Shown: piece after piece, positions 12,281-59,520 of the stretch | Numbering within the stretch: the first letter of the stretch is position 1 | Layout: each line of letters begins with the position of its first letter | DNA from: an uncultured Candidatus Saccharibacteria bacterium | GTDB taxonomy: Bacteria > Patescibacteriota > Dojkabacteria > CAZCSM01 | Assembly: GCA_964501355.1 (NCBI GenBank) | Contig: CAZCSM010000009.1 | Span: forward strand, 1 to 63,108 | Reading direction: 5' to 3' | DNA: 63,108 nt | The notes under the pieces: model-generated | Database searches by the model: none | The model's input: the letters and a program-made list of their open reading frames with translations, nothing else | Told to the model about the DNA's origin: nothing | Position numbers and translations under genes: made by a program

Positions 12281-12308
12281 GTAGAGACGTAGCATGCTAC
12301 GTCTCTAC
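12281..12308. repeat. 28-nt perfect palindrome, family A (GTAGAGACG-N10-CGTCTCTAC)
   Basis: gtagagacgtagcatgctacgtctctac, with 14+14 perfect self-complementarity. It lies 8 nt after the permease stop and may double as a terminator. Confidence 0.85.
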
Positions 12309-21358: not shown

Positions 21359-21359
21359 T

Positions 21360-22964: not shown

Positions 22965-22996
22965 TCTACCACTAAATCTCTCTCTTGTTCAGACGA

Positions 22997-28720: not shown

Positions 28721-31700
28721 TTATTCATCCGGAATTGCAGTAACAATGCTAATGCCCGAATGTGTAAAAGCGGTTACCCCGCTTGGGATTGCAATTCCCC
28801 ATTCCAAATCAAGTGTCGCATTCGAAGGGTGTGAAGTCGGCTTTGTCAGGTTGGTATCAACAGAACTTGTAGTTGCAGATAAGACACTTCCAGAACCATA
28901 TGTAAATGGTGTTGTGGAATACTGCTGATTTTCGACTGGAATTACAGAAGCACTACACGTCGGGTAATCTGTACACAAATTCGAGCCTGATAAACTTAAA
29001 TCAATTGTTCCGTTTCCGGTATTTGTAATCGTTGTCGCATAGTTAGTAGAACCGGTATTTGTTCCTTTATCCAAGGTTTCATAATAAAGGGTGTCTTGTG
29101 CTGACATAGCAATAAGTGTTGCCATCTCGATTGTATCTGTATCTGCTGTTCCTGCACCAACTGTATCAGTTGGTGTCACTTGACACGTCCAGTCATCTGC
29201 TACATATGTCCCTGCATCTGTCGGATCTGCGTGATACCAGACGTTAAATGTGCAAGTGTAATCTTGTGTTAATCCACTACCGTTTGATGGAACACAGTTT
29301 GTGTTCCCACTTACTGTGTAGTGATTGTTATTATCATCTGTTGCTGAATATCCTACTCCTGTTCTGTATAAGTGTGCTCTTGCATATTGTATATTTCCAT
29401 ATCCATCTTCATCAGTTATTGTTGCTGTACAAGTCACTTCTGTTGTTGTTCCCTCGGTTAGATTAATAGCTAATGCATCTGCGTTAATTGAGACATTACT
29501 CGTGACAGGTAGTACGTTACCACCTGTGGTTGTGAATGAAACTATATCTCCATAAAATATCTTGTTATCTCCTCTTTTGAAAAAGGCTCTTGTGTAGTAA
29601 GTTGTTGCGATATCTAAACCAGTTAAAGCTGTTGTGAATGTTCCTGTTGTTGTTTTTGCCCCATTATCGTAAAATAGTTCATACCCAACCCCCTCTCGTC
29701 CCGAACCAGAGCTATAGAGATAGTCAATTTCGTCCTGATTTAAAGCTCTATCAAATATTCTGAAATCATCTATTTCACCAGAAAACCTTCCTGCACCACC
29801 GTTATTAATATTTCCAATATTAAAGGTGGTCCATGCGAATGCACTCGAAGTTGAGCCTACAGCAGTTTCAATATGCACTCCGTTTCTATAGTAAGTTATT
29901 CTTCGATTACCCATAACAAAATCAAAAGTAAAAACTAAGTGATACCACTGATTAGCGGTAAGTCCTAAAGATACAGAAGGGCTTGCATTGTGCCATTCAA
30001 CTGAACCCGTGTTGTAATTTCTTAAGACATTAGTAGCCACAGGTGCCGAGTCAAACATTCCAACAGGTGTTGCTGAATCTGAATTTACCCAGAAGGCAAT
30101 TGTTATTGGCAATGTAGGCTTGGGAATAGTTGCGGAAATAACATCATTCACTCCGTCAAGCGTAAGCGCGGAATTAATAACGCCTGTAACAGAGTGTGAA
30201 CTTGTGTAGTTGTCTGTTCCTCCTCCGCCAGTAAAGGTCGCATTGTAATTACCCATAAAGTCTTCAACGATTGAATTGTCTTCATTATCATTCATCTTCC
30301 ATTCAACAATAGGATCTAGGTATGCAGCTGTTGTATCTGTTGTAACTAATTGTCCGTGTTCTTGAGCGTAGTAATATCCAAATGATGATAGATTTGCATT
30401 CCCTACTCCTGAGTTTTCATTAATGTCTGTTACGGCACTCGTCGAAATTGTTGGAATTCTAAATTCTGTTGTTGCAAATGGACAATAATCTATTGGTCTG
30501 GTTGCGGTATCATTGACAGGGTTATTTAAAGTTAGATTTTGCCCACATTGCCCTCCTGCATCTGTATCATTAGGTCCGTCCAATCCTCCCCACCATAAGT
30601 TTTCGGCTAAGATTATAGTTGTCGTATTGTTGAAAAGACCATACGTTTTATTTTCAATATTTAAAGATGTGAGAGTTGGTGATACTGTTCCAGCCTGATG
30701 GTATATACCGTGTGTGTTGTATCTAAAGTTAGAATTAGTTATGGAAACATTGGTAGAACCGTTGTTGTAGATTCCATACCTTCCATATGACAAATCAAGA
30801 TAGTTTATAGTGTGAGTACCTGTTCCAGATAATGAAATATCCCGCCAGTTGCTAGTAGTGGGCATGGTTGCATTACCATCATTGTTAGTATCGCCTCCGA
30901 TAAAATCATTGAAGGTTGATGTTATATATACCATGTTATTTTGCTCTCCGTTTATATTAAGACTTGCACCATTGCTTATCGTAAGTGTCGACAAACTTAC
31001 ATTAAGAACTTTTATTACGACTCCTCCTTCTAGATTTAATTGGTTCGGGGCTCCGCTTACAGTGTAGTTGCCATATTGCAAATATGAAATGTTCTCTATC
31101 CCAGCAAAATTCCGCTGTGTTATTGCACAAATGTTTGATGGACAGGATGAGGTGGAACCTGAAGCCAATCCGTACATAATTGCGTTGTAGCTATTTGAGT
31201 TAGATCCAAATCCTAGCACATCTACATTGACACCTGAACCAAGCAGAGCAGAACCTGAATTGGGAGCCACTTCTATGATTGCAGTATTTTTAATGAAGTT
31301 ATTTCTTGCCGTTGTTAAATTTCCAAGATCTACTACGGATGCTCCTACTATATTACTTTCAAGATGTGAGTCTGTTATTGTTAAAGAGCTACCTAAACCA
31401 TCGGCTCTAGCGCCATGTTTTGTATATAGGATTTTTGTGTAGGTAATTGTTCCCGTCCCTCCACCATAAACACGAATATTATCCAAGTATCCAACCGCAG
31501 GAGTTGTAGAGCTACCATCATTATTTGTATCCCCACCATGAACATCATCTCTGTGGTCGGTAAATATAATTGGTTGCGATGCTGTCCCATTCATTTCTAA
31601 AGTAGAACCATTTACAGCAAGTGTTACAGCACTCCATACTAAACCCTTAATTATAACCCCTTCATCAACTATTAGACGGTTAGAACTTCCACTAACTGTA

Positions 31701-33097: not shown

Positions 33098-33156
33098 TAA
33101 GTTCCCATCCTAAACTCGTTGTTATTTATTAATATAATTGTACACGTTTTCAGTAA

Positions 33157-36100
33157 TTAATCAGTAGGAATTGCAGTGAAAATATTCTCTCCGTGATGAA
33201 CATATCCCAATGCGTATGATGGAACACTGATTCCCCATTCCAGATCAAAGGTTGCATTCGAAGGATTCGCAGTAGGTTTTGTTAAATTAATATCAACAGG
33301 AGTTGAGCTTGCTGACAGAACACTACCGGAACCATAGGTGAATGGTGTTGTAGAGTATTGTTGATTATTGACTGTGATTATTGATCCGCTGCATGTCGGA
33401 TAATCTGTGCACATATCAGATCCTGATACTTGAATATCTATTTCACCGTTTCCGGTATTTGTAATTGTGGTTTCAAAATTTGTAGAACCGGTGTTGTTCC
33501 CCCTATCCAAGCTATCATAATCCAATGAATCGGCTGCTGACATCGCGATAAGTGTTGCCATCTCAATTGTATCTGTATCTGATGTTCCCGCTCCAACAGT
33601 ATCAGTTGGTGTTACCTGACACGTCCAATCATCTGTTTCGTATGTCCCTGCATCTGTTGGATCTGCATGATAATATACATTAAATGTACACGTGTAATAT
33701 TCTACTGATCCTGATCCTCCTGATGGTACACACTCTGAATCTCCGGACACAGTGTAATGATTATTGTCATCGTCTGCTGATGATTCGCCTACTCCTGTTC
33801 TGAATAGCTTTGCTTCAACTGATGTAATATTCCCGTATCCATCTACATCTGCTACTGTTGCTGTACAAACGACTTCAGTCGTTGTTGATTCAGTGAGTGT
33901 TATTTCCGTTGCATCTGCATCGATTGAAACATTGCTTGCTACAGGAAGACTATTTCCTCCAGTTGTTGTAAAGTTTACAACATCTCCATACATATGGAGT
34001 CCATCGGTTCTATTTACAAATGCTCGCGTATAGTATGTTGTCGCTTCTTCTAGACTCGTAAGACTAGTTGTGTAGACTCCCGTTGTTAGCTTCTGTCCGT
34101 TATCATAAAAGACTTCGTAACCGAGGCCCTCATGTCCATCTCCAGAGTTGTATAAATAATCGATCTCAGCTTGATTTAGCGAGTAATCAAATATTCGGAA
34201 ATCATCTATTTCTCCTGCAAACCTACCAGCACTTCCGTTGTTTATGTTTCCAATATTAAAAGTTGTCCATCCAAACGACGTAGTATCTGAACCCACTGCA
34301 ATTTGCTGTAATGTGCCATTTCTATAATATGTAAGTCGGCGTTTTCCACCATAAATCTCATATACAAAAGTTAAGTGATACCAAGTATCTGCCGTCAAAT
34401 TTAAAGTTACTTCAGGATCATTACTGTGCCATTCAACTTTTCCAGCTTCATAGTTTCTGAATACGTATCCAACGTTAGGGCCAGAGTCAAACATTCCAAC
34501 AGGATCATCTACATCTGAATTGACCCAAAATGCTATCGTTATCGGAAGACTTGGTTTTGGTATTGTTGCTGATACTACATCGTTTACTCCATCAAATGTT
34601 AATGCTGAATCTATTACCCCTGTTACGCTATGTGAGCTTGTATAGTTATCTGTTCCTCCTCCTCCTGTAAACGTTGCATTGTAGTTACCCATGAAATCTG
34701 TAACCACTGAATCGTCTGCATTATCGTCCATTTGCCATTCTACAATAGGATCAAGATAAACGATTTGATTGCTAGTTGAAAGCAGTTGTCCATGATTCAA
34801 TGCATGATAATATCCATATGATGAAATATTGGCATTTCCAACACCCGAATTTTCATTCACATCTGTTACTGAATTTGTTGTAAGAGTCGGGATTCTGAAT
34901 TCGGTGGTTGCAAATGGACAATAGTCTATAGGGTGTGATGCATCGTCATTAACGCTATTATTAAGTGTTGAATTAATACTGCATTGCCCACCAGCATCTG
35001 CATCATTCGGACCATCGGCCGCCCCCCACCATAGATTTTCCATGGTAAGAACAGTGGAAGTGTTATTATAATAACCGTAACTATAATTGTTGACTATATT
35101 TAAGGCGCTAAATGTGGGAGCAGAACCACTGTTAAAATAGCCGCCGTATGTATTAATTCTAGAATTTGAATTGCTTATTGTTACATTAGTTGCGGTATTG
35201 TTGAAGTAAGCAGTATGACCATAAGAAATATCAACATAATCTAATGAGTGAGTCCCCGCCCCCCTTAAATCGAGACTATTCCAATCAGCTCGAGAAGGCA
35301 ATGTTGCAGTACCATCGTTATTGGTATCACCTCCGATATAATCGTTCTTGAGTGATGTAAAATAAACCATATTATTCAAAGTTCCATTAACATCTAAAGA
35401 AGCACCGCTAGTTACTACTAGATCTACATTAGAGGTTGATTTCATGATAACACCGGGATCGAAAACAACAGTATCATCACTTCCATTAAACGTATAATCA
35501 CTATTCATATGATATGGCCAGTTTGTAATACCTGCAAAAGTTTTTTGATCAAATGTGCAGATGTTAGAAATACAATCATCAGTGCCTGTATCAGTCCAAC
35601 CTGTCAAGATCACATTATTTGAATTTGCGTTAGCGTCGGTACCAACGATATCCGTACTTGCGCCTGAACCTAAAGACAATGATACGTAATCGGGGTTTAA
35701 CTCAATAGGAGCGATTGACTGTTTGTTGAATGTGTTTCTTGCCGTCGTCAATGAAGCATGTTCATAAATAGATATTCCCGTCTGACAACTTTCAAAGAGA
35801 GAGTCCTGAACGGTCGCAGAAGAGTAGTCATAAACTCTTAACCCCCTATCCGCATAGTAGATTTTTGAATAATCGACCGTAGCCGATGAACTGTTTGCCG
35901 CCATTATACTATCCCATTCTCCAATTGATGGGGTTGTAGCGGACCCATCATTGTTGGTATCACCACCAAAAGTATCATCATACTCAGAAGTAAATATGAC
36001 CTCATTCCCTTCTGAACCATTTACGTCCAAAGATGTTCCTGCTCTAACACGCAAGTAACCGTTAGTAAAAGATATTCTCCTGAATTTTATAATAACGCCA

Positions 36101-38205
36101 GGGTCTATTTCCAGTTTCGCTCCGGCGGTAGAATCAGATATTTCATAATTATCGTAGATGACGTATGGAATATTACTTATTCCAGCAAATGTTCTCTGCG
36201 GAAATTCGCAAATATCCAATGGACACGAAGAGGATCCGGAATCACTATACCCAACCAGGATTCCATTGTAACCATTTATATCAGAACCCGTACCGATTAT
36301 ATCTACATTGGTACCGCTACCGAAGATTACAGTTAATACGTCCGGATTTAGGTCTATAGGGGCAAAAGTCAACTTTTTAAAGGTATTACGAGAGGTGGTC
36401 AATGAGGCCTGTTCAGATACTGAAATTCCGACACGCCCTAATTCGAAAAGTGTATCGTTAATAACAGCGCTAGATCCGGCACCGGTAACAATAAATCTGT
36501 CATGGTAAAATATCTTTGCATAGTCAACAGTAGCAGAACAATTTGCTGCAATACTAAAGCCAGTCCAATTACTGACAGAAGGAGATGTTGCTGAGGAGTC
36601 GTTATTTGTGTCTCCCGCAATAGTGTCATCATATTCAGATGTAAATATCACCTCATTACCTGAAGACCCATTTATGTCAAGATCGCAACCATTTTGTATT
36701 TGTAGAATAGCATTAGATAAAGGTAATTTTCGAACCTTGATGATAACACCTGCATCTATCTCTAATTTTGCACCTGCAGTAGGATCGTTTACGGTATACG
36801 AATCTATCATAACATAAGGGATGTTGCTTATTCCGGCAAATGTTCTCTGTGGAATATCGCAAATATTAGAAGGACAATCAGACGCGCCGCTATCATATAA
36901 GCTAATACCTATTGCGTTATAGCCATTAACATTTGCACCCGTACCCAAGACATCTGCATCAGATCCGGTGCCCAATGATATAGATAAAACATCAGGATTT
37001 AAAACAATTGGCGTATACGTCATTTTATTAAAGGTATTACGGGCAGTTGTTAGTGATGCGCGTTCATAAACATCAATACCCGTTTCGTTAAGCTCAAATA
37101 AACTGTCGTATATAGTAGCAGAAGTATTTGTTCCATTAACCTTTATAGATCTCTGATAATAAAATTTTCCGTAGTCAATTGTTGCCGTACAACCAGAATC
37201 AACAAAAATACCATACCAGTTTGTTGTACTTGGAGACGTTGCGGTTCCATCATTATTAGTATCACCACCCTGTGAATCATCGTATTCAGAGGTAAAGATT
37301 ACCTCGTTACCAGAAGATCCATTTATATCAAGGTCACAGCCACTTTGCACACTTAAATATCCATTTGACAAAGATAACTTTCTGCCCTTAACCAAAACGC
37401 CTCCGTCAATCTGAAGCTTTGCTCCAGAAGTTGAGTCATTAACCGTATATTGGTTAAGTATAATATATGAAATGTTACTTATACCGGCGAAAGTCCGCTG
37501 CGGAATTGAACAAATATCCGAGGGACAATTGTTTGAACCACTATCTGTAAGACCAATCCCAATTGCATTATACCCATTAACATCTGTGCCTGTGCCCAGA
37601 ACATCAGCATCGGTCCCTGCTCCTAGTGTTACAGAATACACATCCGTATTTAACTCTATCGGTGTATACAACTGCTTGTTAAAAGTATTTCTTGCTGTCG
37701 TCAATGACCCTCGTTCAAATACGGATATACCTAACTCACAGCTATTGAATAAAGAATCATTAACAGTTGCCGTTGCATTATCTTCGTAAATACGCAGCCC
37801 TGTATCTGCATAATAAAACTTCGCATAATCAATATACGCAGTACCGTTGTTTCTTATATACACACCGTACCAGGCACCAACGGTCGTTGATGTATGATGA
37901 GTAAATAGGACTTCACTGCCAATAGTTCCATTTACATCTAGTGTTCCATAAACTTGAAAATAATAATTCCCATTTGCACGAACTTCAACTCCGGGCTCTA
38001 CCGTAAGAGTAACTCCGCTTGCTACAGTAACATGTCCTGTCATAATATAGCGATTACCTGTTGTCCAGGTAGTATTTGTAGAAATAGTCCCTGTGACGTT
38101 GTAATCTGTCGCATCTGCCTTCCAAGAAAACACAAACAACCCAATTGCAAAGATTGGAATTGTCATCAATGTTATTTGTAGCAGTCTTTTACCGATCGTA
38201 CTCAT
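33157..38205 (-). CDS. giant secreted surface protein, paralogue of the 1458-aa protein with 4 beta-helix-like modules
   Basis: 1682 aa. The N-terminal ~110 aa and C-terminal ~650 aa are closely similar to the neighbour. There are four C-P-x-x-I-C...QRTFAGISNI modules, the same LamG-like segment and the same 139-aa C-terminal module. Confidence 0.85.
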   Translation of the reverse strand: MSTIGKRLLQITLMTIPIFAIGLFVFSWKADATDYNVTGTISTNTTWTTGNRYIMTGHVTVASGVTLTVEPGVEVRANGNYYFQVYGTLDVNGTIGSEVLFTHHTSTTVGAWYGVYIRNNGTAYIDYAKFYYADTGLRIYEDNATATVNDSLFNSCELGISVFERGSLTTARNTFNKQLYTPIELNTDVYSVTLGAGTDADVLGTGTDVNGYNAIGIGLTDSGSNNCPSDICSIPQRTFAGISNISYIILNQYTVNDSTSGAKLQIDGGVLVKGRKLSLSNGYLSVQSGCDLDINGSSGNEVIFTSEYDDSQGGDTNNDGTATSPSTTNWYGIFVDSGCTATIDYGKFYYQRSIKVNGTNTSATIYDSLFELNETGIDVYERASLTTARNTFNKMTYTPIVLNPDVLSISLGTGSDADVLGTGANVNGYNAIGISLYDSGASDCPSNICDIPQRTFAGISNIPYVMIDSYTVNDPTAGAKLEIDAGVIIKVRKLPLSNAILQIQNGCDLDINGSSGNEVIFTSEYDDTIAGDTNNDSSATSPSVSNWTGFSIAANCSATVDYAKIFYHDRFIVTGAGSSAVINDTLFELGRVGISVSEQASLTTSRNTFKKLTFAPIDLNPDVLTVIFGSGTNVDIIGTGSDINGYNGILVGYSDSGSSSCPLDICEFPQRTFAGISNIPYVIYDNYEISDSTAGAKLEIDPGVIIKFRRISFTNGYLRVRAGTSLDVNGSEGNEVIFTSEYDDTFGGDTNNDGSATTPSIGEWDSIMAANSSSATVDYSKIYYADRGLRVYDYSSATVQDSLFESCQTGISIYEHASLTTARNTFNKQSIAPIELNPDYVSLSLGSGASTDIVGTDANANSNNVILTGWTDTGTDDCISNICTFDQKTFAGITNWPYHMNSDYTFNGSDDTVVFDPGVIMKSTSNVDLVVTSGASLDVNGTLNNMVYFTSLKNDYIGGDTNNDGTATLPSRADWNSLDLRGAGTHSLDYVDISYGHTAYFNNTATNVTISNSNSRINTYGGYFNSGSAPTFSALNIVNNYSYGYYNNTSTVLTMENLWWGAADGPNDADAGGQCSINSTLNNSVNDDASHPIDYCPFATTEFRIPTLTTNSVTDVNENSGVGNANISSYGYYHALNHGQLLSTSNQIVYLDPIVEWQMDDNADDSVVTDFMGNYNATFTGGGGTDNYTSSHSVTGVIDSALTFDGVNDVVSATIPKPSLPITIAFWVNSDVDDPVGMFDSGPNVGYVFRNYEAGKVEWHSNDPEVTLNLTADTWYHLTFVYEIYGGKRRLTYYRNGTLQQIAVGSDTTSFGWTTFNIGNINNGSAGRFAGEIDDFRIFDYSLNQAEIDYLYNSGDGHEGLGYEVFYDNGQKLTTGVYTTSLTSLEEATTYYTRAFVNRTDGLHMYGDVVNFTTTGGNSLPVASNVSIDADATEITLTESTTTEVVCTATVADVDGYGNITSVEAKLFRTGVGESSADDDNNHYTVSGDSECVPSGGSGSVEYYTCTFNVYYHADPTDAGTYETDDWTCQVTPTDTVGAGTSDTDTIEMATLIAMSAADSLDYDSLDRGNNTGSTNFETTITNTGNGEIDIQVSGSDMCTDYPTCSGSIITVNNQQYSTTPFTYGSGSVLSASSTPVDINLTKPTANPSNATFDLEWGISVPSYALGYVHHGENIFTAIPTD

Positions 38206-39315: not shown

Positions 39316-41103
39316 CTACCACTCACCCTGTACAGCGATTAGCGTGTTTGATCCTGAATATTCTCCGGAAGGTGTCCCCGCGGGAACTTCTGAAGACCAG
39401 TATATTGGTTCCTCACCAACTAAATCAGACGTCGTCTTTAATACGTTAAGTTCAAGTTCCAATGGATAATCCACATCTCTTCGGTCTCGCAAAATCTCCC
39501 CTGTTCCATGTGTAAACGAAGAAGTTGCATATTCCTGATTATTTGTTTCGAAATGATTTCCGGAACATGTTGGATAATTTGTACATACGGAATAGTCGGC
39601 AGTGACATCACCAGTCTGGTTTGTTGCACCTACCTCAGTATCGATATTAGTATTTCCTGTACAGGTTACCGGTAATTGTATATTTGCACTTACCTCACCG
39701 GCATCAACTGCGCCATAGTTGATCGATCCACTCGTAGAAAAAGCAATCAATGGACTTACTTGAAGTGTACCATCTGAGTCGGTAACTTCTGTTACTTCAT
39801 CTGCCGCCATTACAAATGCGGTCCAAGAAGACTCCTCATGTTGAGCCATGGAGCCAAGCGCTCCAGTCGATTCTGCATAATATTGAACAGGCGCGGTACA
39901 ATTATATCGAACACTATCATCACTTGAACCCGCACAACCGTTTGTTCCTGAATCGACAGTACAAGTGATAACAGGATAACACACATCACCATCTGAATCT
40001 CCAGCCGCATCACAATCAGTATGTCCTCCGGGTAACCATGTTCCCCAAAAATCCATTCTGACGTAATCTATATCTTGACATGAATTAGAATCTTGAACAT
40101 CAACATAAGCTATAAGCGGAGTTGTTAAACTTTCTGTTAAGGTCAATGTGTCAAAGTTAAAACTATGTATTGTCATAACTGGATCAATATTATTAACGAT
40201 CCAGTTGGTATTTACCGATGTTGCCTGCTGAGTTGTAGCTCTACCTACATGAAGCAGATTGTGCTCGTCATAGACAAATGCATGTGCTGTAAAAGTCCCA
40301 TCGAGGTATACACTAGGAATTGAGAACTCTGCGGATGGGTTATCTGTAGCCGGAACGGCAGTAGTTGCTAATGTTGTAGCAACGCAGGTCGGTGCTGTAT
40401 ATGGGGTAGTTTGAATAGCATTTGGCGAACTACAAATAAGTAATGTCAATTCATCGTCTGTCGTATCATAGGTATCTGTATCGGATCCGTCCGATGTAAA
40501 AGTTACTAAGGTGCCGGGATTTACACCTGCGCCCGTATCATTATTTACCGTAGTTAATGACGGTACATGATTAACTACAAAAGGACTATCCGAATCTCCT
40601 GGTACGGCCGGATTATAAACAGCAGAACACTTGCTATCTGAACTATAATCACATACAAATGCATACCAAGGACTATTCTCAGCATCGCCAGTCTGCACTG
40701 TATATTGACAGGAGGTGGAAACTTCGTCTGCCGTAGACGATGAAACACACCATGTCCCGACATCGCAAGTTGGGACAGCATTATTATGCGGTGTTACCGC
40801 AGCAGTTTTACAAACTGCTAAATAATAATTATTTCCATCCTGATCATCGCCGGTTGCACGAAAAGTTATCGCACTTCCAACGTTGGTAGGAGTTGATGAA
40901 GTAGACGCAGTGAACGTGAAGTTGCTTTCCTCGTATGGATCTACGCTAAATGATGGAGCAGCATTATTTACACTAATTACAGTAGGAACGTTCTCAGGAT
41001 CATCCGCGTAGGCATTGTAAGACAAGAGAATTAAACCGAATATAAAAACGGCTACAAAGGAAAACTGTTGTAAGATTTTACTACCGAGAACCTTGAATTG
41101 CAT
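39316..41103 (-). CDS. secreted Cys-rich surface protein (paralogue A) with shared C-terminal module
   Basis: ATG at 41103 (MQFKVLGSK). Signal ...LLSYNAYA. Conserved block TFRATGDDQDGNNYYLAVCK...WYAFVCD...SPFVVNH. The C-terminal 150 aa are homologous to the C-termini of the giant proteins. Confidence 0.7.
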   Translation of the reverse strand: MQFKVLGSKILQQFSFVAVFIFGLILLSYNAYADDPENVPTVISVNNAAPSFSVDPYEESNFTFTASTSSTPTNVGSAITFRATGDDQDGNNYYLAVCKTAAVTPHNNAVPTCDVGTWCVSSSTADEVSTSCQYTVQTGDAENSPWYAFVCDYSSDSKCSAVYNPAVPGDSDSPFVVNHVPSLTTVNNDTGAGVNPGTLVTFTSDGSDTDTYDTTDDELTLLICSSPNAIQTTPYTAPTCVATTLATTAVPATDNPSAEFSIPSVYLDGTFTAHAFVYDEHNLLHVGRATTQQATSVNTNWIVNNIDPVMTIHSFNFDTLTLTESLTTPLIAYVDVQDSNSCQDIDYVRMDFWGTWLPGGHTDCDAAGDSDGDVCYPVITCTVDSGTNGCAGSSDDSVRYNCTAPVQYYAESTGALGSMAQHEESSWTAFVMAADEVTEVTDSDGTLQVSPLIAFSTSGSINYGAVDAGEVSANIQLPVTCTGNTNIDTEVGATNQTGDVTADYSVCTNYPTCSGNHFETNNQEYATSSFTHGTGEILRDRRDVDYPLELELNVLKTTSDLVGEEPIYWSSEVPAGTPSGEYSGSNTLIAVQGEW

Positions 41104-41161
41104 AACACTACATTTAACCAATCAAGTGAAGAGTACGCTAACCAATTTCACACCAAGTTTC

Positions 41162-50253: not shown

Positions 50254-53200
50254 ATGAATAATAAGAAATTCACAACTGCCTACTCTCGTCTCAACGATGA
50301 ACAGAAACTTGCCGTTGATACTATTGAAGGTCCTGTTATGGTTATTGCTGGACCGGGGACAGGGAAAACGCAAATCCTAACACTTCGTATTGCTAATATT
50401 CTAGAAAAAACACAAACTGAAGCCAAGTCAGTTCTTGCATTAACGTTCACTGATTCCGGAGTTAAAGCAATGAAAGAGCGACTTGTGGAATTTATTGGCC
50501 CAACCGGATATCAAGTTGATGTTTTCACGTTTCACTCCTTCTGCAAGAAAATAATTGAAGATAATCCCGAAAGTTTTCCTATTACAGGCGATGCACAGGT
50601 TCTTGGGGATCTTGAACGCGTGCAAATATTCAAGGAAATAATAGATACGATTGATCTCAATTTATTAAAACCAAAGAATTCTCCATATTATTTTATCCAG
50701 GCAATTGTTTCAAAACTTTCCGATTTGAAACGGGAAGGAATTACACCTGAAAAGTTTGAGAAAATAATCGAAGAGGAAGAATCTTTATTAAATCCTGACA
50801 ATTTCCTGAATAAGAAAACGGGAAAACCAACGCAAAAATATTTTGCAAAAGTTAAGGCTGTTAATAAATGGAAGGAGCTTTTGACAACTTATGAAGAATA
50901 TCAGAAAGTCTTGATTAAGCGTAATCGATATGATTACGATGATATGATTACATACGTAATCGAAGCGTTTACGAAAGACGACGAGATTTTGGCGAAATAT
51001 CAGGAACAATATCAGTACATTCTCGGCGACGAATATCAGGATACTAATAGTGCGCAAAATGAAGTTATCCGATTATTGACATCTTTTGAATATATTGAAA
51101 ATCCAAATGTTTTCGTAGTTGGTGACGATGAACAGTCCATTTACCGTTTTCAGGGAGCTTCAATGGAAAACTTCAATTTCTTTGAACAGAATTACCCTAC
51201 TCTAACGAAAATTACGCTCGTAACGAATTATCGATCTACACAAAAAATTCTCGATGCGTCGAGATCGATGATTGAAAATAACGAGAACCGATTGGAAAAT
51301 ATTAATCGACTGCTCCAGGCTTATCAAGAATATGAAGATAAGAAGATTAATGTCGTGAAAACTTCTCACGAATATGTTGAGAAGATTTTCCTTGCGGAGA
51401 AAATTAATGAATTAATTAAAAGTGGCGTAACGCCGAGTGAGATCGCTGTGCTTTACCGAACGAATGCAGATGGCGCAGAACTTGCAAATTCATTAGGAAA
51501 GTTTGGAGTGAAGACGCAGTCTGTAAAAGGAGAGAATGTGCTTGATGATTTAGAAATAAAAAAGCTAATTAAAATTCTCCAGGTTATTCTCGAGGCACAA
51601 GATGAACTGCGAAGCAAGGTTAATGATGACTTCTTCTGGACTGGTGAGAAATCTGATAAAGATGTGCATTTGTTCACTGTCATGCATTATTCCGTTTTTG
51701 GAATTAATACAACGGATATTTTGAAATTGTTAAAATTTGCATCGACTGAGAAGAAACATCTTTCGGAAGTTCTTGATGAAAAATCATATTTAATGCAGCT
51801 AGATCTGGAAACTGGCGATAAAGTCACAGAGTTTTGGGATAAGATCGGAAAGTGGAGAACCGATTCGGCAAATGAACCTTTTTCGAAATTTCTGGAAAAC
51901 GTAATTCGTGAAAGCGGATTGATTCAGAAATTTATGGAGGCCGAAGACAAAATAGATAGATTTAACAAACTGAACAAATTCTTCGGAGAGTTGAAGGAGT
52001 TCAATTATTCCAAACCCAATTTAGGTCTAGTAGATTTCTTCAACGCATTATCACTTCGACAGGAAAATAAGATTTCAATTCCTGTCAATGACATTAAAAG
52101 AGATGAAAACTCCGTTCAATTAATGACAGCGCATAGTGCGAAAGGGCTTGAATATGAGTACGTGTTCATTTACAGATGTGTTGATGGAGTTTGGGGAAAT
52201 AGAAGAAAACCGGAATTATTAAGTTTGCCGGAAGGTGTTATCAAATTCTCCGATATTACAAAGTTAGAAAAGAATGAAGATGAAAGAAGACTTTTCTATG
52301 TTGCAATGACTCGTGCAAAGAAGGAATTATTCTTATCTTTTGCAAATAACTATGTTGAATATAATTCGGAAAAAACACGGCTTCCCAGTACATTTGTTAA
52401 CGAAATAAAGGAAGATTTTATCGACTACATTAATGTTGATAAATATGAAGAGAAGATTGGTGATGCCTTGGAAATTTTGACGACGGGAGAACTACAAGTT
52501 GATAAGGTTTCCGCATCAGAAGAAGAATTTCTAAAGGAAATGGTGAAATACATCACCGTCAGCCCTTCAAGTTTGAATACATATTTAAAGTGTCCGTATA
52601 AATATAAACTCGATAGGTTATTCTCAATTCCAAAAGTTAAGGAAATTCCCCTAGCCTTTGGAACCGCAGTTCATAAAGGTCTAGAGGATTATTACAGAAA
52701 TTATGCTAACTCCGGAAAATACCCGGATATTCAGCTTGCAATTGATTCGTTTCAAAATGAGCTCGACAGACAGCTATTATCGAAGATGGATCACGATGAA
52801 CTGGCTAAACGAGGGGTGGATATTTTGCGTGAATATTTGGAAGAAACAAAAGATGATAATTTAGAAGTAATTGGTGCCGAATATAACTTCAGTTCAAGAA
52901 ATGTTTATCTGGAAAATATTAAATTAACTGGTAAAGTTGACCGAATTGATTATGTAAATAAAGATAGAAAAGAGGTTCGGGTTGTTGATTATAAAACAGG
53001 AAAACCTAAGAGCTTGAATCAGATTTTAGGAAAAACTGCTGATGGTGATGAAAGTTATAAGCGTCAATTGATTTTCTACAAATTGCTGTCACAACTGGAT
53101 CGAAGCTTCAATAAAATTGTTGTTTCCACAAGACTTGAGTTCGTAGAGAAAGGATACAATGGGAAATATCAACCTGTTGAATACCAGGTTACAGATGAGG

Positions 53201-53340
53201 ATCTGAAAGTTCTGAGACAAATAATTCGAGAAACGGCAGAAAAGATAAAGAAACTGGAATTTGCAAGAACTACAGAAATTAAGAATTGTGAACATTGCCA
53301 ATATAAAGATCACTGCTGGCCGGAAGGTTTGAACGTATGA
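50254..53340 (+). CDS. UvrD/PcrA-type SF1 helicase fused to a C-terminal PD-(D/E)XK nuclease with Cys4 cluster (AddB/Cas4-like)
   Basis: 1028 aa. Walker A AGPGTGKT, motif II-like GDEYQD with VVGDDEQSIYRFQGA downstream, late motifs LMTAHSAKGLEYEYVF and YVAMTRAKKEL. Nuclease part: LKCPYKYKL ... GKVDRIDY ... VVDYKTGK ... CEHCQYKDHC. Confidence 0.85.
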   Translation: MNNKKFTTAYSRLNDEQKLAVDTIEGPVMVIAGPGTGKTQILTLRIANILEKTQTEAKSVLALTFTDSGVKAMKERLVEFIGPTGYQVDVFTFHSFCKKIIEDNPESFPITGDAQVLGDLERVQIFKEIIDTIDLNLLKPKNSPYYFIQAIVSKLSDLKREGITPEKFEKIIEEEESLLNPDNFLNKKTGKPTQKYFAKVKAVNKWKELLTTYEEYQKVLIKRNRYDYDDMITYVIEAFTKDDEILAKYQEQYQYILGDEYQDTNSAQNEVIRLLTSFEYIENPNVFVVGDDEQSIYRFQGASMENFNFFEQNYPTLTKITLVTNYRSTQKILDASRSMIENNENRLENINRLLQAYQEYEDKKINVVKTSHEYVEKIFLAEKINELIKSGVTPSEIAVLYRTNADGAELANSLGKFGVKTQSVKGENVLDDLEIKKLIKILQVILEAQDELRSKVNDDFFWTGEKSDKDVHLFTVMHYSVFGINTTDILKLLKFASTEKKHLSEVLDEKSYLMQLDLETGDKVTEFWDKIGKWRTDSANEPFSKFLENVIRESGLIQKFMEAEDKIDRFNKLNKFFGELKEFNYSKPNLGLVDFFNALSLRQENKISIPVNDIKRDENSVQLMTAHSAKGLEYEYVFIYRCVDGVWGNRRKPELLSLPEGVIKFSDITKLEKNEDERRLFYVAMTRAKKELFLSFANNYVEYNSEKTRLPSTFVNEIKEDFIDYINVDKYEEKIGDALEILTTGELQVDKVSASEEEFLKEMVKYITVSPSSLNTYLKCPYKYKLDRLFSIPKVKEIPLAFGTAVHKGLEDYYRNYANSGKYPDIQLAIDSFQNELDRQLLSKMDHDELAKRGVDILREYLEETKDDNLEVIGAEYNFSSRNVYLENIKLTGKVDRIDYVNKDRKEVRVVDYKTGKPKSLNQILGKTADGDESYKRQLIFYKLLSQLDRSFNKIVVSTRLEFVEKGYNGKYQPVEYQVTDEDLKVLRQIIRETAEKIKKLEFARTTEIKNCEHCQYKDHCWPEGLNV

Positions 53341-56352: not shown

Positions 56353-57483
56353 TTAAACAAGTAATTCTTCGATAATCATATCTAACAATAAGACTTTCTT
56401 TTCTGGAATCATAATTGCACCATCAACTTGAACAAGTGAGCCATCGAGCTTAAGCCTTTGCAACCGCTGATTAAAGGACTTATGGTAATCCTCAGGGAGC
56501 CGTTTTAATTCATTCTCAATATTCACCCCTTCTCGAAGCCGAAGCCCAAGAAGAATCTTTGTTTCGAAATTTGAAATAGCATCCATCTCCTGTAGAGACG
56601 TTGCATGCAACGTCTCTACGTCTAAATAAATATATTCTTTCAGATCCTTTGTATTCTCAAATCTTTTACCATTAATAAAATTCCCTGCCGACAAACCACA
56701 ACCTATGTATTGACCATTTCGCCATGTATTCAAGTTATATTTACATTCAAAACCAGGTTTAGCAAAGTTAGAAATTTCATATTGCTTGTAACCAAAAGAT
56801 TCTAGTTTATCAACTGCAGAGAAATACATGTCTTCAAGAAAGGCATCTTCAGGAAGTTTTAACAAACCTTTTTTATAAAGATTTTCAAAATGAGTTCCCT
56901 GATCAATAGAAAGTAAATATGCAGAAAGATGAGTTGGCTCGAAACTTGCCGCCGTTTCAATATTTTTTAAAACACTATCAATCGATAGATTTGGTAACCC
57001 CATCATCAAATCTATATTGAAATTTGCAAAATCGGAGTTCTTTACGGCAGAGAGAAAGTTCTTTGCAGCTTCCGAATCGTGGATTCTGCCTAACAGTCTC
57101 AATTCATCATCATTGAAACTTTGGACTCCGATGCTTAGGCGATTAAAACCCATTTCCTGTAGAGACGCAAAATCTTGCGTCTCTACGGACGAAACACCGG
57201 GATTCAATTCAATTGAAAGTTCTTCATACCCATCTGGCAAGACATCAACAATCTTTTTAATTTGTTCAACGGATAATGTATTTGGAGTTCCACCACCAAA
57301 ATAAATCCATTTTACATTTCTCTCACCTAAATCTTTTGTGCGAAAAATAATTCCTTCAACAAGTTTATTAACATATTTTTCTTTTAGATCTGCCGAGATA
57401 TCCGCAAAAGAAGAGAATGCACAATAATTACATTTCTGTATACAAAAAGGGATGTGGATATAGAGACCAATGTCAGTTGTCAT
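56353..57483 (-). CDS. hemW: radical SAM family heme chaperone / oxygen-independent coproporphyrinogen oxidase-like (HemW/HemN family)
   Basis: YIHIPFCIQKCNYCAF (CxxxCxxC), GGGTPN, NRLSIGVQSF. Contains two family A palindromes in frame. Confidence 0.85.
   Translation of the reverse strand: MTTDIGLYIHIPFCIQKCNYCAFSSFADISADLKEKYVNKLVEGIIFRTKDLGERNVKWIYFGGGTPNTLSVEQIKKIVDVLPDGYEELSIELNPGVSSVETQDFASLQEMGFNRLSIGVQSFNDDELRLLGRIHDSEAAKNFLSAVKNSDFANFNIDLMMGLPNLSIDSVLKNIETAASFEPTHLSAYLLSIDQGTHFENLYKKGLLKLPEDAFLEDMYFSAVDKLESFGYKQYEISNFAKPGFECKYNLNTWRNGQYIGCGLSAGNFINGKRFENTKDLKEYIYLDVETLHATSLQEMDAISNFETKILLGLRLREGVNIENELKRLPEDYHKSFNQRLQRLKLDGSLVQVDGAIMIPEKKVLLLDMIIEELLV
56592..56619. repeat. family A 28-nt perfect palindrome inside hemW
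   Basis: gtagagacgttgcatgcaacgtctctac. Translated in hemW as VETLHATSL(Q). Confidence 0.9.
57159..57186. repeat. family A 28-nt palindrome inside hemW
   Basis: gtagagacgcaaaatcttgcgtctctac (12-bp stem, 4-nt loop). Translated in hemW as VETQDFASL(Q). Confidence 0.9.
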
Positions 57484-57498
57484 AGTTAAAAGTTCATA

Positions 57499-58080
57499 TT
57501 ACAAATAATAGTCGTCATAAATCCATTTTGAAATATTATTATCTATGTAACTGCGAATCTTCGTAAGTGATTTATCGTTTTGAATTACGTGATCATAAAA
57601 GCGTGGTTGCCAGGAGAAGTTAAGATTCATCTCATGTACTAATTTTGAAACCGCAGATTTATACGAACGAACAATTGATGATAATGAACCAATGGAGGGT
57701 GAGATACCAGATAGTTGTTGAAATTCTTTTTTCGTAGAGACGTTGCATGCAACGTCTCTACCTGCGTTTCCAGTATTTCCAAACATCCCTTTATCAATAT
57801 ACAAAATCACATGTACATGATTCGGCATTACAATATGCGAATCAACAGTAACAAAAGGAAAATGATTAGGAATTTCTTTTATATATTTCTCCGCAACTTT
57901 TCCAATCTCAGACAAAACCATTTTCTCTTCTACAACCTCACCAAAATATTTGTGCATTCCTCTCGTACAGATTGTCACATAATAATACCCAGTTTGTGAA
58001 TAATCCCAACCGGGAAGTCTTGATGACTTCACGCGAAATCTGTTTTTAAACTTATTCGATTCTATCGGAACACCATTCAA
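57499..58080 (-). CDS. IS200-like HUH tyrosine transposase (RAYT-like), embedded in an operon
   Basis: 193 aa. RLPGWDYSQTGYYYVTICT, HUH motif MPNHVHVILY, C-terminal WQPRFYDHVIQND...IRSYIDNNISKW. The TTG start overlaps the upstream gene's TGA. Contains a family A palindrome. Confidence 0.7.
   Translation of the reverse strand: MNGVPIESNKFKNRFRVKSSRLPGWDYSQTGYYYVTICTRGMHKYFGEVVEEKMVLSEIGKVAEKYIKEIPNHFPFVTVDSHIVMPNHVHVILYIDKGMFGNTGNAGRDVACNVSTKKEFQQLSGISPSIGSLSSIVRSYKSAVSKLVHEMNLNFSWQPRFYDHVIQNDKSLTKIRSYIDNNISKWIYDDYYL
57734..57761. repeat. family A 28-nt perfect palindrome inside the RAYT-like gene
   Basis: gtagagacgttgcatgcaacgtctctac, identical to the 56592 copy. It is read in the other open frame as (G)RDVACNVST. 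Confidence 0.9.
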
Positions 58081-58757
58081 CCTCTCTTATAATTCAAATA
58101 CATATAACGAACCGGCTTCGTATTTAATAAAAAGAACGCCACCGCCGCACCACTAAGGTCAAACAAATTATCTGTTATAGCATCTTCCACACCGCCAACC
58201 ATATACGTATTTAAATACATATCAGAATAATATTCATAAATTCCGAACATCGTTCCCATAGCAAAACTCGTTAAACAAGCCAATGCACTTATTAAAAAAA
58301 TGTTATCAGAAGAATTCAACTTGATCTTTACTGAATAATTGTAATAAATGAAAAACAGTGAAATAGAAACAATTATTGCACAGGAGAAATGTACGAAATC
58401 ATCATACCAAACAATAGAATAAGGTTTATCAACTGAAAACCAGCCAAAAAGGTTTCCAGCATTATCAATAAGCGAACCAAGAAATCCAAGAAATATAAAG
58501 ATATAAATTGAAAAAGACATCTTTTCGACTTTCTTCAATCCGTACAAAACATAGACAAAAAGACTTTCGATAATCGATACTAATAAAACTCTTCCTGAAA
58601 AGTTGGTGATGTAACGATGGCAGGGACCGAAATCGTCTGGTAAAAATCCGTTTTCCATGATTAGGCAAATCCCAAGACTTATCAGTGTAAATATCCAACT
58701 TACAATTATAAAGATTTTCAAGAAAGACCTAATCTTTTTGATTTGTTTTTCCATCAA
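58077..58757 (-). CDS. polytopic membrane protein of unknown function
   Basis: 226 aa with about 6 TM helices. It overlaps the lgt 3' end and the RAYT-like start. Confidence 0.45.
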   Translation of the reverse strand: MMEKQIKKIRSFLKIFIIVSWIFTLISLGICLIMENGFLPDDFGPCHRYITNFSGRVLLVSIIESLFVYVLYGLKKVEKMSFSIYIFIFLGFLGSLIDNAGNLFGWFSVDKPYSIVWYDDFVHFSCAIIVSISLFFIYYNYSVKIKLNSSDNIFLISALACLTSFAMGTMFGIYEYYSDMYLNTYMVGGVEDAITDNLFDLSGAAVAFFLLNTKPVRYMYLNYKRG

Positions 58758-59520
58758 TGGAATTTCTACTTTTTATTAATAGTATAGTAAAGCCCACGAT
58801 AATTAAGATAATTGATAATATTTGTCCATCATTAAAAATCCATAAATCGTTTGGCTCTATTCTTATAAAACCTATTATTAAACGACCAATTCCATACCAG
58901 ATAAGATATAAAGCAAAAATCCGTCCCTTCTGTAGAGACGCAGCGTTTTGCGTCTCTACCTTCAAAAGAATCATCAACCCTATTAAATTCCAAATTGACT
59001 CGTAAAAAAAAGTTGGATGAAAGTATTCATACCCTTCGTAACCAACGACTCTATTTTCAAGCGGGATATAGACCTTCCAGGGTAAATTCGTCGGATTACC
59101 ATATAGTTCCTTATTAAAGAAGTTTCCAAATCGTCCGGCAATCTGTCCGACTAATAAACCTAAAGAGCCCAAATCCAGAAGCTTCCAGATGTTTAGTTTC
59201 TTTATCTTTGCGTAAATTGTAAATACCAAAAGCCCTCCTATCAAAGCGCCAAAAATCCCCAAACCCGACATCTGAAGGGAAAGGACTTTATCCAAATTAT
59301 CTTTGTAATATCCCCACTCCGCAAAAACGTGATATAAGCGAGCGCCTAGAATTGATACGGGGAGAGTAAATAACAAAAGATTATCAATGTGGTCTGTTGA
59401 AACACCATATTTCTTCGCGCGGACAGAAACCAGAACATAACCCAAGATAATTCCGGTTAAAATTGATAGTGAGTAATATGAAATTGTTAGTCCGGCAAAA
59501 TTTAAGTACAATGTAGACAC
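58729..59520 (-). CDS. lgt: prolipoprotein diacylglyceryl transferase
   Basis: Polytopic protein with Lgt signatures (GARLYHV, GQIAGRFGNFFNKELYGNPTNLPW, GIGRLIIGFIR). GTG start. Contains one family A palindrome in frame. Confidence 0.85.
   Translation of the reverse strand: MSTLYLNFAGLTISYYSLSILTGIILGYVLVSVRAKKYGVSTDHIDNLLLFTLPVSILGARLYHVFAEWGYYKDNLDKVLSLQMSGLGIFGALIGGLLVFTIYAKIKKLNIWKLLDLGSLGLLVGQIAGRFGNFFNKELYGNPTNLPWKVYIPLENRVVGYEGYEYFHPTFFYESIWNLIGLMILLKVETQNAASLQKGRIFALYLIWYGIGRLIIGFIRIEPNDLWIFNDGQILSIILIIVGFTILLIKSRNSIDGKTNQKD
58932..58959. repeat. family A 28-nt palindrome inside lgt
   Basis: gtagagacgcagcgttttgcgtctctac (11-bp stem, 6-nt loop). Translated in lgt as VETQNAASL(Q). Confidence 0.9.

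Follow-up and report, generated by a model that had tools for sequence, protein, structure and literature searches.

In the window, that is the whole 63-kb stretch of DNA that was analysed, the region of interest consists of closely packed genes lying on the minus strand. The gene lgt (58729..59520), which carries one copy of a short palindrome, encodes the prolipoprotein diacylglyceryl transferase; its product matches PF01790 (E = 3e-61) and TIGR00544 (178 bits for a cutoff of 119) and aligns to E. coli Lgt (5azb). It is followed by a 226-aa membrane ORF (58077..58757) devoid of palindrome, then by a RAYT/TnpAREP-like gene of 193 aa (57499..58080) and by hemW (56353..57483). The latter contains two copies and belongs to the radical SAM heme chaperone family (Pfam Radical_SAM; TIGR00539, 292 bits for a cutoff of 205), and the AF2 model of HemW displays a mean pLDDT of 90. 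The spacers between the RAYT gene and its neighbours measure 0 and 15 nt. The 226-aa ORF is DUF2238-like in relatives: its orthologue also follows lgt in L123, where it is annotated DUF2238, and in L125. The RAYT gene is missing at this position in L121 and L125, two relatives that conserve the synteny. The 226-aa ORF is thus a native neighbour, and the RAYT gene alone is an extra gene in the window.

We searched the window with the pattern GTAGAGACG-N(4-16)-CGTCTCTAC and obtained five exact copies, starting at 12281, 56592, 57159, 57734 and 58932, every match having a 10-nt centre (GTAGAGACG-N10-CGTCTCTAC). None was expected by chance, and zero matches were obtained in 100 dinucleotide-preserving shuffles of the window. 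The exact 9-mer is restricted to the ten arms of these five copies, each arm contains GAGACG/CGTCTC and all five copies have GTAG…CTAC ends. The initial annotation had counted five copies, one intergenic and four within 2.4 kb, and this count stands. The clustered copies (two in hemW, one in the RAYT/TnpAREP gene and one in lgt) occupy 2,368 bp of the window, which has a probability of about 0.001 under uniform placement. With respect to the RAYT gene, they are found 313 nt and 880 nt downstream, 851 nt upstream and, for one more, inside it; the nearest neighbouring copies are spaced by at least 540 bp. All had been presented as perfect 28-nt palindromes, which is true of the copies at 12281, 56592 and 57734 only, since copy 57159 has a stem of 12 bp with a centre of 4 nt and copy 58932 a stem of 11 bp with a centre of 6 nt. 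Folded as hairpins with stems of 11-14 bp, the copies have free energies of -11.5 to -15.5 kcal/mol (z from -5.4 to -9.2). A 28-nt palindrome able to form a stem-loop lies within the 20-40 nt size range of REPs. An extragenic location is the usual criterion for REPs, and four of the five copies are located in ORFs; published work, however, counts intragenic REPs among them too.

No strand is assigned to the palindromes themselves, and we give their readings on the strand of the host gene. In hemW, the copy at 57159..57186 (site 1, GTAGAGACGCAAGATTTTGCGTCTCTAC on the gene strand) encodes VETQDFASLQ, residues 100-109, and that at 56592..56619 (site 2) encodes VETLHATSLQ, residues 289-298. The lgt copy at 58932..58959 (GTAGAGACGCAAAACGCTGCGTCTCTAC on the gene strand) is read as VETQNAASLQ, residues 188-197. 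The RAYT-internal copy, GTAGAGACGTTGCATGCAACGTCTCTAC at 57734..57761, uses another frame to encode GRDVACNVST (residues 107-116), between the HUH and Tyr motifs. The fifth copy, GTAGAGACGTAGCATGCTACGTCTCTAC at 12281..12308, lies 8 nt past the stop codon of an FtsX-like permease ORF (-13.7 kcal/mol, z = -7.6). The hemW site 2 copy and the RAYT-internal copy are identical in sequence; the copies at 57159 and 58932 differ from the latter by their centres. These ORFs and frames agree with those first proposed. The third frame, which had been described as never used, does contain a TAG stop, and its absence is a survivorship effect.

The 193-aa protein fits TnpAREP subclass 2.4 (RAYT group 4), as judged from its sequence motifs. 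Its HUH motif NHVH (residues 87-90) conforms to the NH[IFV]H of this subclass, the segment WQPRFYDH (residues 157-164) provides the 'WQ' W motif, and the Tyr motif is YIDNN (residues 178-182; YIDNNI, 178-183), the final P of YIxNNP being replaced by I. The Pfam model PF01797 (Y1_Tnp) scores 25.5 bits on this ORF for a cutoff of 23, and the NCBIfam model NF047646 (REP_Tyr_transpos) scores 44.3 bits, under its cutoff of 80. Comparison with PDB sequences gave one match below E = 0.01, to 4er8, the TnpAREP of E. coli. This match is weak (E = 0.003), and the HUH and W/Y regions are aligned in it. Y178 pairs with the tyrosine of the VDYIY segment of 4er8, which we take to be the catalytic Y115 (numbering from the alignment coordinates). 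Among the 1099 RAYT homologues found, many carry the source-given name 'REP element-mobilizing transposase RayT'.

Both the REP and the RAYT enzyme fall within a class that was already known. According to Quentin et al. 2018 (PMC6006769) and Bertels et al. 2017 (PMC5581495), subclass 2.4, equivalent to RAYT group 4, has a median length of 194 aa, is scattered over phyla, and possesses the motifs NH[IFV]H, WQ and YIxNN as well as a variable insert between beta3 (HuH) and alphaC that holds an in-frame REP, as residues 107-116 do in the window. The presence of in-frame REPs inside tnpAREP, between the HuH and Tyr motifs, is therefore known for this subclass (PMC6006769). Its REPs are defined there as double-foot elements, with GT[AG]G at the 5' foot and its complement, C[TC]AC, at the 3' end. 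Compared with these descriptions, the system of the window differs by its host lineage, which is sparsely sampled, low-GC and uncultivated, by the I that ends its Tyr motif instead of P, and by flanking REPs lodged inside the neighbouring host genes, with no intergenic space. The other striking feature, intragenic GTAG REPs in unrelated genes, was likewise published before (Di Nocera et al. 2013, PMC3733652). The REPs of the latter study are short GTAG-tagged palindromes associated with RAYT genes (REPtrons) and found inside ORFs of known function, as here. However, they are mostly located downstream of genes, and their intragenic cases are mostly dimers coding for 20-30 aa, whereas the window copies are mostly intragenic and are single units of 28 nt that have a foot at either end. 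The string 'GTAGAGAC' was not found in the main text of that paper, which covers 24 families.

The comparison of RAYT homologues is informative regarding the internal copy. The palindrome is encoded right after the HUH motif in 92 of the 120 homologues compared, where it is read as VET..SL, as RD..VST or as frame-switch hybrids (VETLQCNVST and RD..RLY, for instance). Of the three possible frames, two are thus used on the 5' arm, and the 3' arm is read in all of them. Since the palindrome is kept in differing frames, selection bears on the DNA and not on the peptide. On the basis of these sequences, the RAYT-internal copy is a family-wide feature maintained at the DNA level and not one more random insertion. 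One could have assumed from the V-E-T…S-L-Q common to the three host-gene copies that VETxxxxSLQ was selected as a protein motif, palindromy being a by-product. The frame data effectively refute this idea: the RAYT gene of the window itself reads the same DNA in another frame, intergenic copies exist, and orthologues display unrelated residues at these positions.

The motif is repeated well beyond the window: at least 120 stretches from other genomes contain it, and its 9-bp foot and stem recur over many phyla and in unrelated genes. In other phyla, the palindrome flanks RAYT homologues (L013, L035 and L071) or lies inside them (L012, L054, L078 and L001). Together with the NHVH, WQ and YIDNN motifs and the 4er8 match, these cases support the link to a RAYT drawn in the initial annotation. 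Residence in frame within host genes is also real and recurs in other genomes. Across other genomes, copies are rarer in long ORFs than random positions are (35% vs 80%). It had also been proposed that only the stems are conserved while the loops differ. This description is incomplete: in 128 copies from other genomes, the inner 10 bases, which the search pattern leaves free, are Watson-Crick paired at 84-97% vs 29-45% expected, and the inner stem positions show several pair types each. The inner stem thus varies by compensatory change and stays complementary. Even the central dinucleotide (positions 14-15) is complementary in 84% of the copies vs 44% expected, so that hairpin stability alone is not a sufficient explanation.

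Such a dyad running through the centre, which a hairpin does not need, would be expected of a double-stranded DNA site bound by a symmetric, dimeric protein, either a regulator or a protein related to restriction-modification. The GAGACG/CGTCTC present in each arm and the type I R-M system encoded in the window would suit this reading. We nevertheless consider it very improbable: inner base pairs that vary freely while remaining complementary are typical of a structure and not of base-specific duplex recognition, the GTAG foot is a REP hallmark, and the element is linked both physically and phylogenetically to an HUH enzyme acting on single strands.

The REPs located in host genes deserve particular attention because the surrounding codons constitute a precise ruler of gain or loss. 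Alignment with REP-free orthologues indicates that the REP-bearing HemW and Lgt segments of the window exceed theirs by just 0 to 2 residues. The HemW segment P95-N114 comprises 18 aa in the window, and 116 of 120 homologues have 16 aa there; the Lgt segment E174-G199 comprises 24 aa, the modal length. When placed on structures, HemW site 1 forms a turn and the start of helix 105-110 (pLDDT of about 80 in the AF2 model), HemW site 2 falls in a domain linker that has the lowest pLDDT of this model (69 for the block 291-300), and the Lgt copy encodes the end of the transmembrane helix 170-191 together with the turn leading into helix 200-220. Short selfish hairpins can thus supply working pieces of proteins, in this case a helix start within a radical-SAM barrel and a turn between membrane helices.

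Relatives display different REPs at these very sites. At hemW site 1, L122 has a GTAGGGGC-type REP, in a segment 20 aa longer, and L121 a decayed remnant. At hemW site 2, L122 carries GTAGGGGCACAAGATTTTGTGCCCCTAC, a REP of GGGGCA type at the same codon, in the same frame and of the same 28-nt length as the AGACG type of the window, and L121 a decayed version of this GGGGCA type. REPs persist at the hemW sites between lineages whose HemW proteins share about 60% identity, and they do so in relatives that have no RAYT nearby. Given also the differing centres of the copies at 57159 and 58932, at least some copies pre-date the arrival of the RAYT gene or come from another source. In Lgt, independent REPs occupy the same loop in the relatives P0245/L126 and P0246/L125, and this loop contains no REP in P0242-P0244.

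One would also wonder whether the host itself selects these elements as nucleic-acid signals, for mRNA stabilisation, RNase processing in the lgt-hemW operon, pausing or the binding of gyrase or a nucleoid protein, the RAYT gene being incidental. E. coli REPs have such roles, the copy at 12281, 8 nt past a stop codon, resembles a REP of a 3'-UTR, and the persistence at the hemW sites just mentioned would be in line with conservation of a signal. However, these sites are free of the element in orthologues (116 of 120 for HemW and most for Lgt), L121 has let the copies decay, the sequence is shared by unrelated genes and phyla, and no T-run was seen after the copies of the window. We thus hold a host-selected signal to be improbable.

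Altogether, we propose with good confidence that the 56.6-59.0 kb region is a REPtron, made of a single tnpAREP/RAYT gene of subclass 2.4 / group 4, coding for an HUH-Y1 enzyme, and of its cognate REP copies. The REP is a double-foot element of 28 nt, 5'-GTAG-AGACG-(inner stem and centre)-CGTCT-CTAC-3', able to adopt an 11-14 bp hairpin as single-stranded DNA. By analogy with the TnpAREP of E. coli, Marinomonas and Stenotrophomonas (groups 2 and 3), the enzyme could bind the hairpin and its GTAG foot when the DNA is single-stranded, the replication fork being the most plausible place, cut beside the foot via a 5'-phosphotyrosine intermediate and rejoin the strands, so that copies would be seeded or renewed preferentially near its own gene. 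Cleavage and strand transfer on single-stranded DNA are features of the E. coli system (group 2) and of the Marinomonas and Stenotrophomonas systems (group 3; Corneloup et al. 2021, PMC8266576); the enzymology found in the TnpAREP literature covers these two groups. In a compact genome where the RAYT gene is embedded in an operon, flanking REPs fall inside the neighbouring genes. Their survival in a coding sequence would require one of the two frames free of the TAG stop, and also a site where about 10 encoded residues can stand in for native ones. The RAYT-internal copy probably serves as a resident template, maintaining the link between REP and enzyme. A REPtron can thereby persist in a very compact genome, its hairpins being housed within ordinary genes.

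How REPs disseminate 'remains to be elucidated' (Corneloup et al. 2021, PMC8266576). The almost unchanged segment lengths and the differing REP types at a same codon point to renewal or replacement in place and not to a one-off insertion. Neither net-zero length nor REP-type switching at orthologous sites was found in the parts of the subclass 2.4 / group 4 literature available to us. What this locus adds lies mainly in the apparent replacement and in-place turnover, the classification being unchanged; the many-phyla distribution of the 9-bp foot and stem, the compensatory inner stem and the frames used by the 92 RAYT homologues are new as well.

The initial annotation had already considered that native sequence could be replaced and not simply interrupted, and the lengths of the HemW and Lgt segments give this quantitative support. 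In its direct form, by cassette exchange or by a templated patch, a new copy would overwrite a stretch of similar length. Either the hairpin would be swapped between the two GTAG/CTAC feet of a pre-existing REP, or the RAYT-internal master would be copied into a target bounded by foot-like microhomology. Supporting this idea, an element of 9.3 codons causes a net change of 0 to +2 aa at each of the three sites in host genes, one of the segments concerned keeps a constant length in 116 of 120 homologues, hemW site 2 holds the type of the RAYT-internal copy (AGACG) in the window but the GGGGCA type in L122, decayed in L121, and the VE…SL encoded by the REP coincides with E and L codons of native Lgt and HemW. 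On the other hand, three sites and three relatives are involved, with no filled and empty pair of near-identical genomes, and the E/L matches could reflect tolerated insertions. Moreover, REP-bearing segments exceed their PDB homologues by 7 aa in an RND pump and by 4-6 aa in a beta-galactosidase of other genomes, and with the longer segment of L122 at hemW site 1 they fit insertion followed by trimming under selection equally well. Direct replacement at these sites thus appears to us rather unlikely. A general hypothesis, which we also find doubtful, would be that REPs of this family spread by overwriting, the enzyme using the gene-internal copy as a master template and a 28-30-nt stretch being exchanged or re-templated between GTAG/CTAC feet or foot-like microhomology. 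If true, it would explain together the unchanged protein lengths, the switching of REP type with a resident RAYT, the dyads that are perfect through the centre in young copies and the internal copy shared across phyla.

A parallel can be drawn between the REPtron and other systems of mobile hairpins. Rickettsia palindromic elements (RPE), which Ogata and colleagues are said to have described in 2000, are also palindromic selfish DNA residing in frame within protein genes, typically in tolerant surface regions. RPE-1 measures about 100-150 bp. The term RPE-like, used initially, is valid for this in-frame residence, as an analogy; the 28-nt size, the GTAG feet and the dedicated, cognate RAYT next door set the window elements apart from RPE. 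The short RPE-4/6 are CGTC-tagged, not GTAG-tagged, and RPE have no known dedicated transposase (Di Nocera et al. 2013, PMC3733652). The E. coli TnpAREP of group 2 (4er8) shares the HUH/Tyr enzyme and the GTAG guide at the hairpin foot. However, the similarity of the enzymes is marginal, and E. coli REPs are bulged-stem, single-foot, extragenic and arranged in BIMEs. IS200/IS605 elements consist of a TnpA gene bounded by subterminal hairpins, moving as a unit and usually multicopy. In the window, the gene is single, its ends are not bounded by hairpins and its Tyr motif is YIxNN instead of Y[IV]ENQ, so that this assignment was rejected. REPINs (Bertels & Rainey 2011) are, like the window copies, symmetric and non-autonomous, with a single-copy RAYT as their presumed mobiliser. 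A REPIN contains two inverted REPs and a spacer, and the window copy is one short 28-nt hairpin. According to Quentin et al. 2018 (PMC6006769), the two feet of a double-foot hairpin could derive from a collapsed dimer.

Searching the window with the pattern GTAGAGACG-N(4-16)-CGTCTCTAC gave five matches, starting at 12281, 56592, 57159, 57734 and 58932 and all with a 10-nt centre, and the same arm-spacer-arm pattern gave none in 100 dinucleotide-preserving shuffles. This bears out the five copies claimed in the initial annotation, which had also called them perfect 28-nt palindromes; this description holds for three of them but not for the other two. These diverged copies, at 57159 and 58932, have lost their symmetry in the centre only. 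Within the window, the exact 9-mer is confined to the ten arms of these five REPs (small GTAG-footed hairpin elements). Folded as single strands, the copies form hairpins of 11-14 bp (-11.5 to -15.5 kcal/mol, z -5.4 to -9.2), and four of the five are clustered inside 2.4 kb (P ~0.001 under uniform placement). The copies at 56592 and 57159 lie in a 376-aa ORF (hemW, 56353-57483, minus strand), where they are read as VETLHATSLQ and VETQDFASLQ. Those at 57734 and 58932 are read as GRDVACNVST in a 193-aa ORF (57499-58080, minus strand) and as VETQNAASLQ in a 263-aa ORF (lgt, 58729-59520, minus strand), and the copy at 12281 begins 8 nt past the stop codon of an FtsX-like permease gene. This ORF map and the translations agree with the earlier reading for all copies, and curated models support the HemW and Lgt identities as well as a transposase domain of Y1 type. 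Coding copies use only the two stop-free frames, and all three copies in hemW and lgt end with CTACAG on the gene strand, hence their shared final Q. Another GTAG/ATAG-footed palindrome, at 56985-57015, was rejected as a REP since it is a by-product of conserved NIDL…PNLS codons.

The 193-aa protein displays the motifs NHVH (residues 87-90), WQPRFYDH (157-164) and YIDNN (178-182). Its sole PDB sequence match at E < 0.01 is a weak one (E = 0.003), with the TnpAREP of Escherichia coli (4er8), and the alignment covers both the HUH motif and the Tyr-bearing segment. About 1,100 homologues were retrieved, which several sources label 'REP element-mobilizing transposase RayT'. Quentin et al. 2018 (PMC6006769) define TnpAREP subclass 2.4, which corresponds to group 4 in the RAYT classification of Bertels et al. 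2017 (PMC5581495), by a median length of 194 aa, the motifs NH[IFV]H, WQ and YIxNNP, and REPs with a 'double foot', 5' GT[AG]G and 3' C[TC]AC. The distribution of group 4 is scattered over 17 bacterial classes (PMC5581495). By its motifs, the window RAYT is a member of subclass 2.4, and its catalytic motifs are intact. The cluster is thus a REPtron, namely a RAYT gene with its REPs, of an already described class. A literature search on REPs in Patescibacteria returned nothing relevant, and one on the raw 9-mer only primer sequences.

In relatives, the order lgt-(DUF2238)-hemW-orf-mscS is conserved and the RAYT gene is absent: lgt is adjacent to hemW in L121, lgt, a DUF2238-like gene and hemW are contiguous in L125, and lgt is followed by a DUF2238 gene in L123. 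In the window, the RAYT ORF sits tightly inside the lgt-DUF2238-hemW operon, after the DUF2238-like ORF and before hemW: its TTG start overlaps the upstream stop (GTTGA; 58077-58080), leaving a spacer of 0 nt, and 15 nt (57484-57498) lie between it and the hemW ATG. No hairpins flanking the RAYT gene to mark its own arrival were found at the locus. There is no intergenic DNA that could hold flanking REPs; those next to the gene are located in lgt on one side and in hemW on the other. The best named relative of Lgt is a Curtissbacteria (CPR) protein with 45% identity.

The palindrome is encoded directly after the HUH motif in 92 of the best 120 of the ~1,100 RAYT homologues. It is read as RD....VST in 41 of them, as VET....SL in 18 and in both ways in 2, and frame-switching hybrids account for the others (VET...VST in 28, RD...RLY in 3); most of the remaining 28 contain degenerate versions. 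Across these homologues, translation of the 5' arm uses two of the three frames and that of the 3' arm uses all of them. Since one DNA is read in several frames, it is the nucleic acid and not the peptide that is conserved, and the explanation by a peptide motif was rejected on these data. The commonest internal form, TTGCATGCAA (RDVACNVS), occurs in 40 of the best 120 homologues, and dispersed copies, too, have this centre most often. Some RAYT genes (homologues P0118, P0054, P0011 and P0049) carry tandem partial REP arms, e.g. CRDVARETCRDVARET…RDVACNVSS, which points to slippage, or to partial copying that recurred, at the internal site.

We then scanned one genome per species with exact outer arms and a free 10-nt centre. 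At least 120 stretches (L001-L120) were found, from Bacteroidota, Cyanobacteria, Chloroflexota, Acidobacteriota, Planctomycetota, Spirochaetota, Zixibacteria and others. Among the matches listed, a RAYT homologue adjoins the palindrome in seven 8-kb stretches, with a palindrome on both sides of it (L013), just upstream (L035, L071) or within its ORF (L012, L054, L078, L001). In the window, the cognate hairpins cluster around the RAYT gene and inside it. The link between palindromes and RAYT that had been proposed at first reading is supported by these neighbours as well as by the RAYT motifs and the 4er8 alignment.

The search pattern left the central ten bases unconstrained. Nevertheless, among the matches listed, Watson-Crick complementarity holds for these bases in 84-97% of 128 copies, versus 29-45% expected from column composition, with three or four pair types per position. 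The stem is therefore kept by compensatory change. Positions 13-16 pair in 91% of the 128 copies from L001-L120 and the adjacent positions 14-15 in 84%, versus 44% expected. Neighbouring bases cannot pair in a hairpin; since the central dinucleotide is complementary all the same, the data suggest that REP copies are born as perfect dyads. In 53% of 266 flanks (133 copies, L001-L120 and the window), a T stands immediately outside the foot (A at the opposite end), so that the palindrome often measures 30 nt (TGTAG…CTACA). The CT dinucleotide beside the foot, as at the cleavage sites of groups 2 and 3, is only about 2-fold enriched (10% versus 5%). The exact motif is also present in 116 stretches of viral-classified contigs (L127-L242, IMG/VR), where the commonest centres are CGATTAATCG and CAAAATCTTG/CAAGATTTTG, the latter identical to the window copy at 57159. 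None of these 116 stretches encodes a RAYT homologue detectable by tblastn, and carriage of the enzyme by phages is therefore unsupported.

The initial annotation had suspected replacement of native sequence in hemW. We compared HemW and Lgt with their orthologues, as it had proposed, by counting residues between invariant anchors in 120 homologues per protein, which avoids alignment ambiguity. Between P95 and N114 of HemW (site 1, the copy at 57159), the window has 18 aa and 116 of 120 homologues have 16. Between Y284 and G313 (site 2, the copy at 56592), it has 28 aa for a mode of 29. Between E174 and G199 of Lgt, its 24 aa equal the mode (64/120), and the nearest REP-free relatives have 23. 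Since a 28-nt element amounts to 9.3 codons, each of the three sites has lost native sequence of near-equal length, which confirms the suspicion of replacement and extends it to every host-gene copy. In predicted structures, HemW 100-109 forms a turn and the start of helix 105-110 (pLDDT ~80), HemW 289-298 lies in the lowest-confidence linker, and Lgt 188-197 covers the last part of a TM helix plus the turn that leads into the following one. The coding copies are limited to structurally tolerant places. On the other hand, a near-zero length change is rejected as a general rule by two PDB-aligned cases from other genomes, in which the REP-bearing segment is longer than in solved homologues, by 7 aa in an RND pump (L093) and by 4-6 aa in a beta-galactosidase (L057).

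Comparison of the orthologous sites rests on three relatives; an exhaustive HMMER search found no further hemW relative of the lineage closer than the 50%-identical P0124. At hemW site 2, the window copy is GTAGAGACGTTGCATGCAACGTCTCTAC, the very sequence found inside the RAYT gene 1.1 kb away; GTAGGGGCACAAGATTTTGTGCCCCTAC occupies the same codon in L122, with frame and length unchanged, and L121 has a decayed form, GTAGGAACACAAGATCGTGTGCCACTAG. At site 1, GTAGAGACGCAAGATTTTGCGTCTCTAC in the window corresponds to aTAGGGGCGCAAG-(26 nt)-CTTGCGCCtCTAC in L122 and to a mere remnant (tctGAGAGGTATGAT) in L121. In the Lgt loop, L125 (GTAGAGACGCATTGCAATGCGTCTtTAC) and L126 carry independent REPs that are shifted by a few codons, and the closest relatives, P0242-P0244, carry none. 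As the HemW proteins are only ~60% identical, these sites have long been occupied. The occupant of a site changes REP type between relatives, and the outer stem is AGACG in the window (5/5) and GGGGC in L122 (2/2). Such a change could be produced by re-templating, by exchange at the common GTAG/CTAC feet, or by stepwise compensatory mutation; an uncompensated position is present at hemW site 1 of L122.

Other small elements were observed at the same places. In L126:41-862 (Lgt P0245), the loop of window 58932 holds the REP GTAGAGACGCA…TGCGCGTCTCTAC, whose centre contains a ~50-nt GC-rich second hairpin (CCTGCCT…AGGCAGG); this small element is nested in the REP, and reading through it adds 33 residues. 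At hemW site 1, L122:109-1350 and L125:4215-4859 carry a second GC-rich intragenic repeat, CTTCGCCAAGGCTTCGGC[CG]GGCA[AG]GC, which encodes LRQGFG[RG]QAG at the position of the window's REP. HemW site 1 is a hotspot for different small elements.

By analogy with groups 2 and 3 (Corneloup et al. 2021, PMC8266576), RAYT would recognise the hairpin and GTAG foot on single-stranded DNA and cleave beside the foot via a phosphotyrosine intermediate, and strand transfer would seed or renew copies, preferentially nearby. One could speculate that the internal copy links enzyme and substrate in horizontal transfer and acts as a template. The likeness to Rickettsia palindromic elements (RPEs), put forward at first reading, stands as far as palindromes in frame inside genes are concerned, but the size, tag and enzyme all differ, so that the comparison is an analogy. 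Di Nocera et al. 2013 (PMC3733652) related short RPEs to a CGTC-tagged superfamily, and their catalogue already included REPs with a GTAG tag that reside in ORFs of known function. What remains of interest is that the length hardly changes and that REP types switch in place; both observations bear on how REPs spread.

Elsewhere in the window, a further GTAG…CTAC palindrome, perfect and with arms of 9 nt (GTAGTTAATGACGGTACATGATTAACTAC), occurs in a single copy at 40550-40578, in a 601-aa ORF (39316-41121, minus strand) with no Pfam match; it may be due to chance or represent a different REP type. Context genes in the intervals 15548-23875, 28721-38205 and 50254-53340 encode the R subunit of a type I restriction enzyme (15548-18685), after which come further large ORFs; two giant proteins with LamG domains (1458 and 1682 aa); and a helicase-nuclease resembling AddA. 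Finally, each REP arm contains GAGACG/CGTCTC, the BsmBI/Esp3I site.
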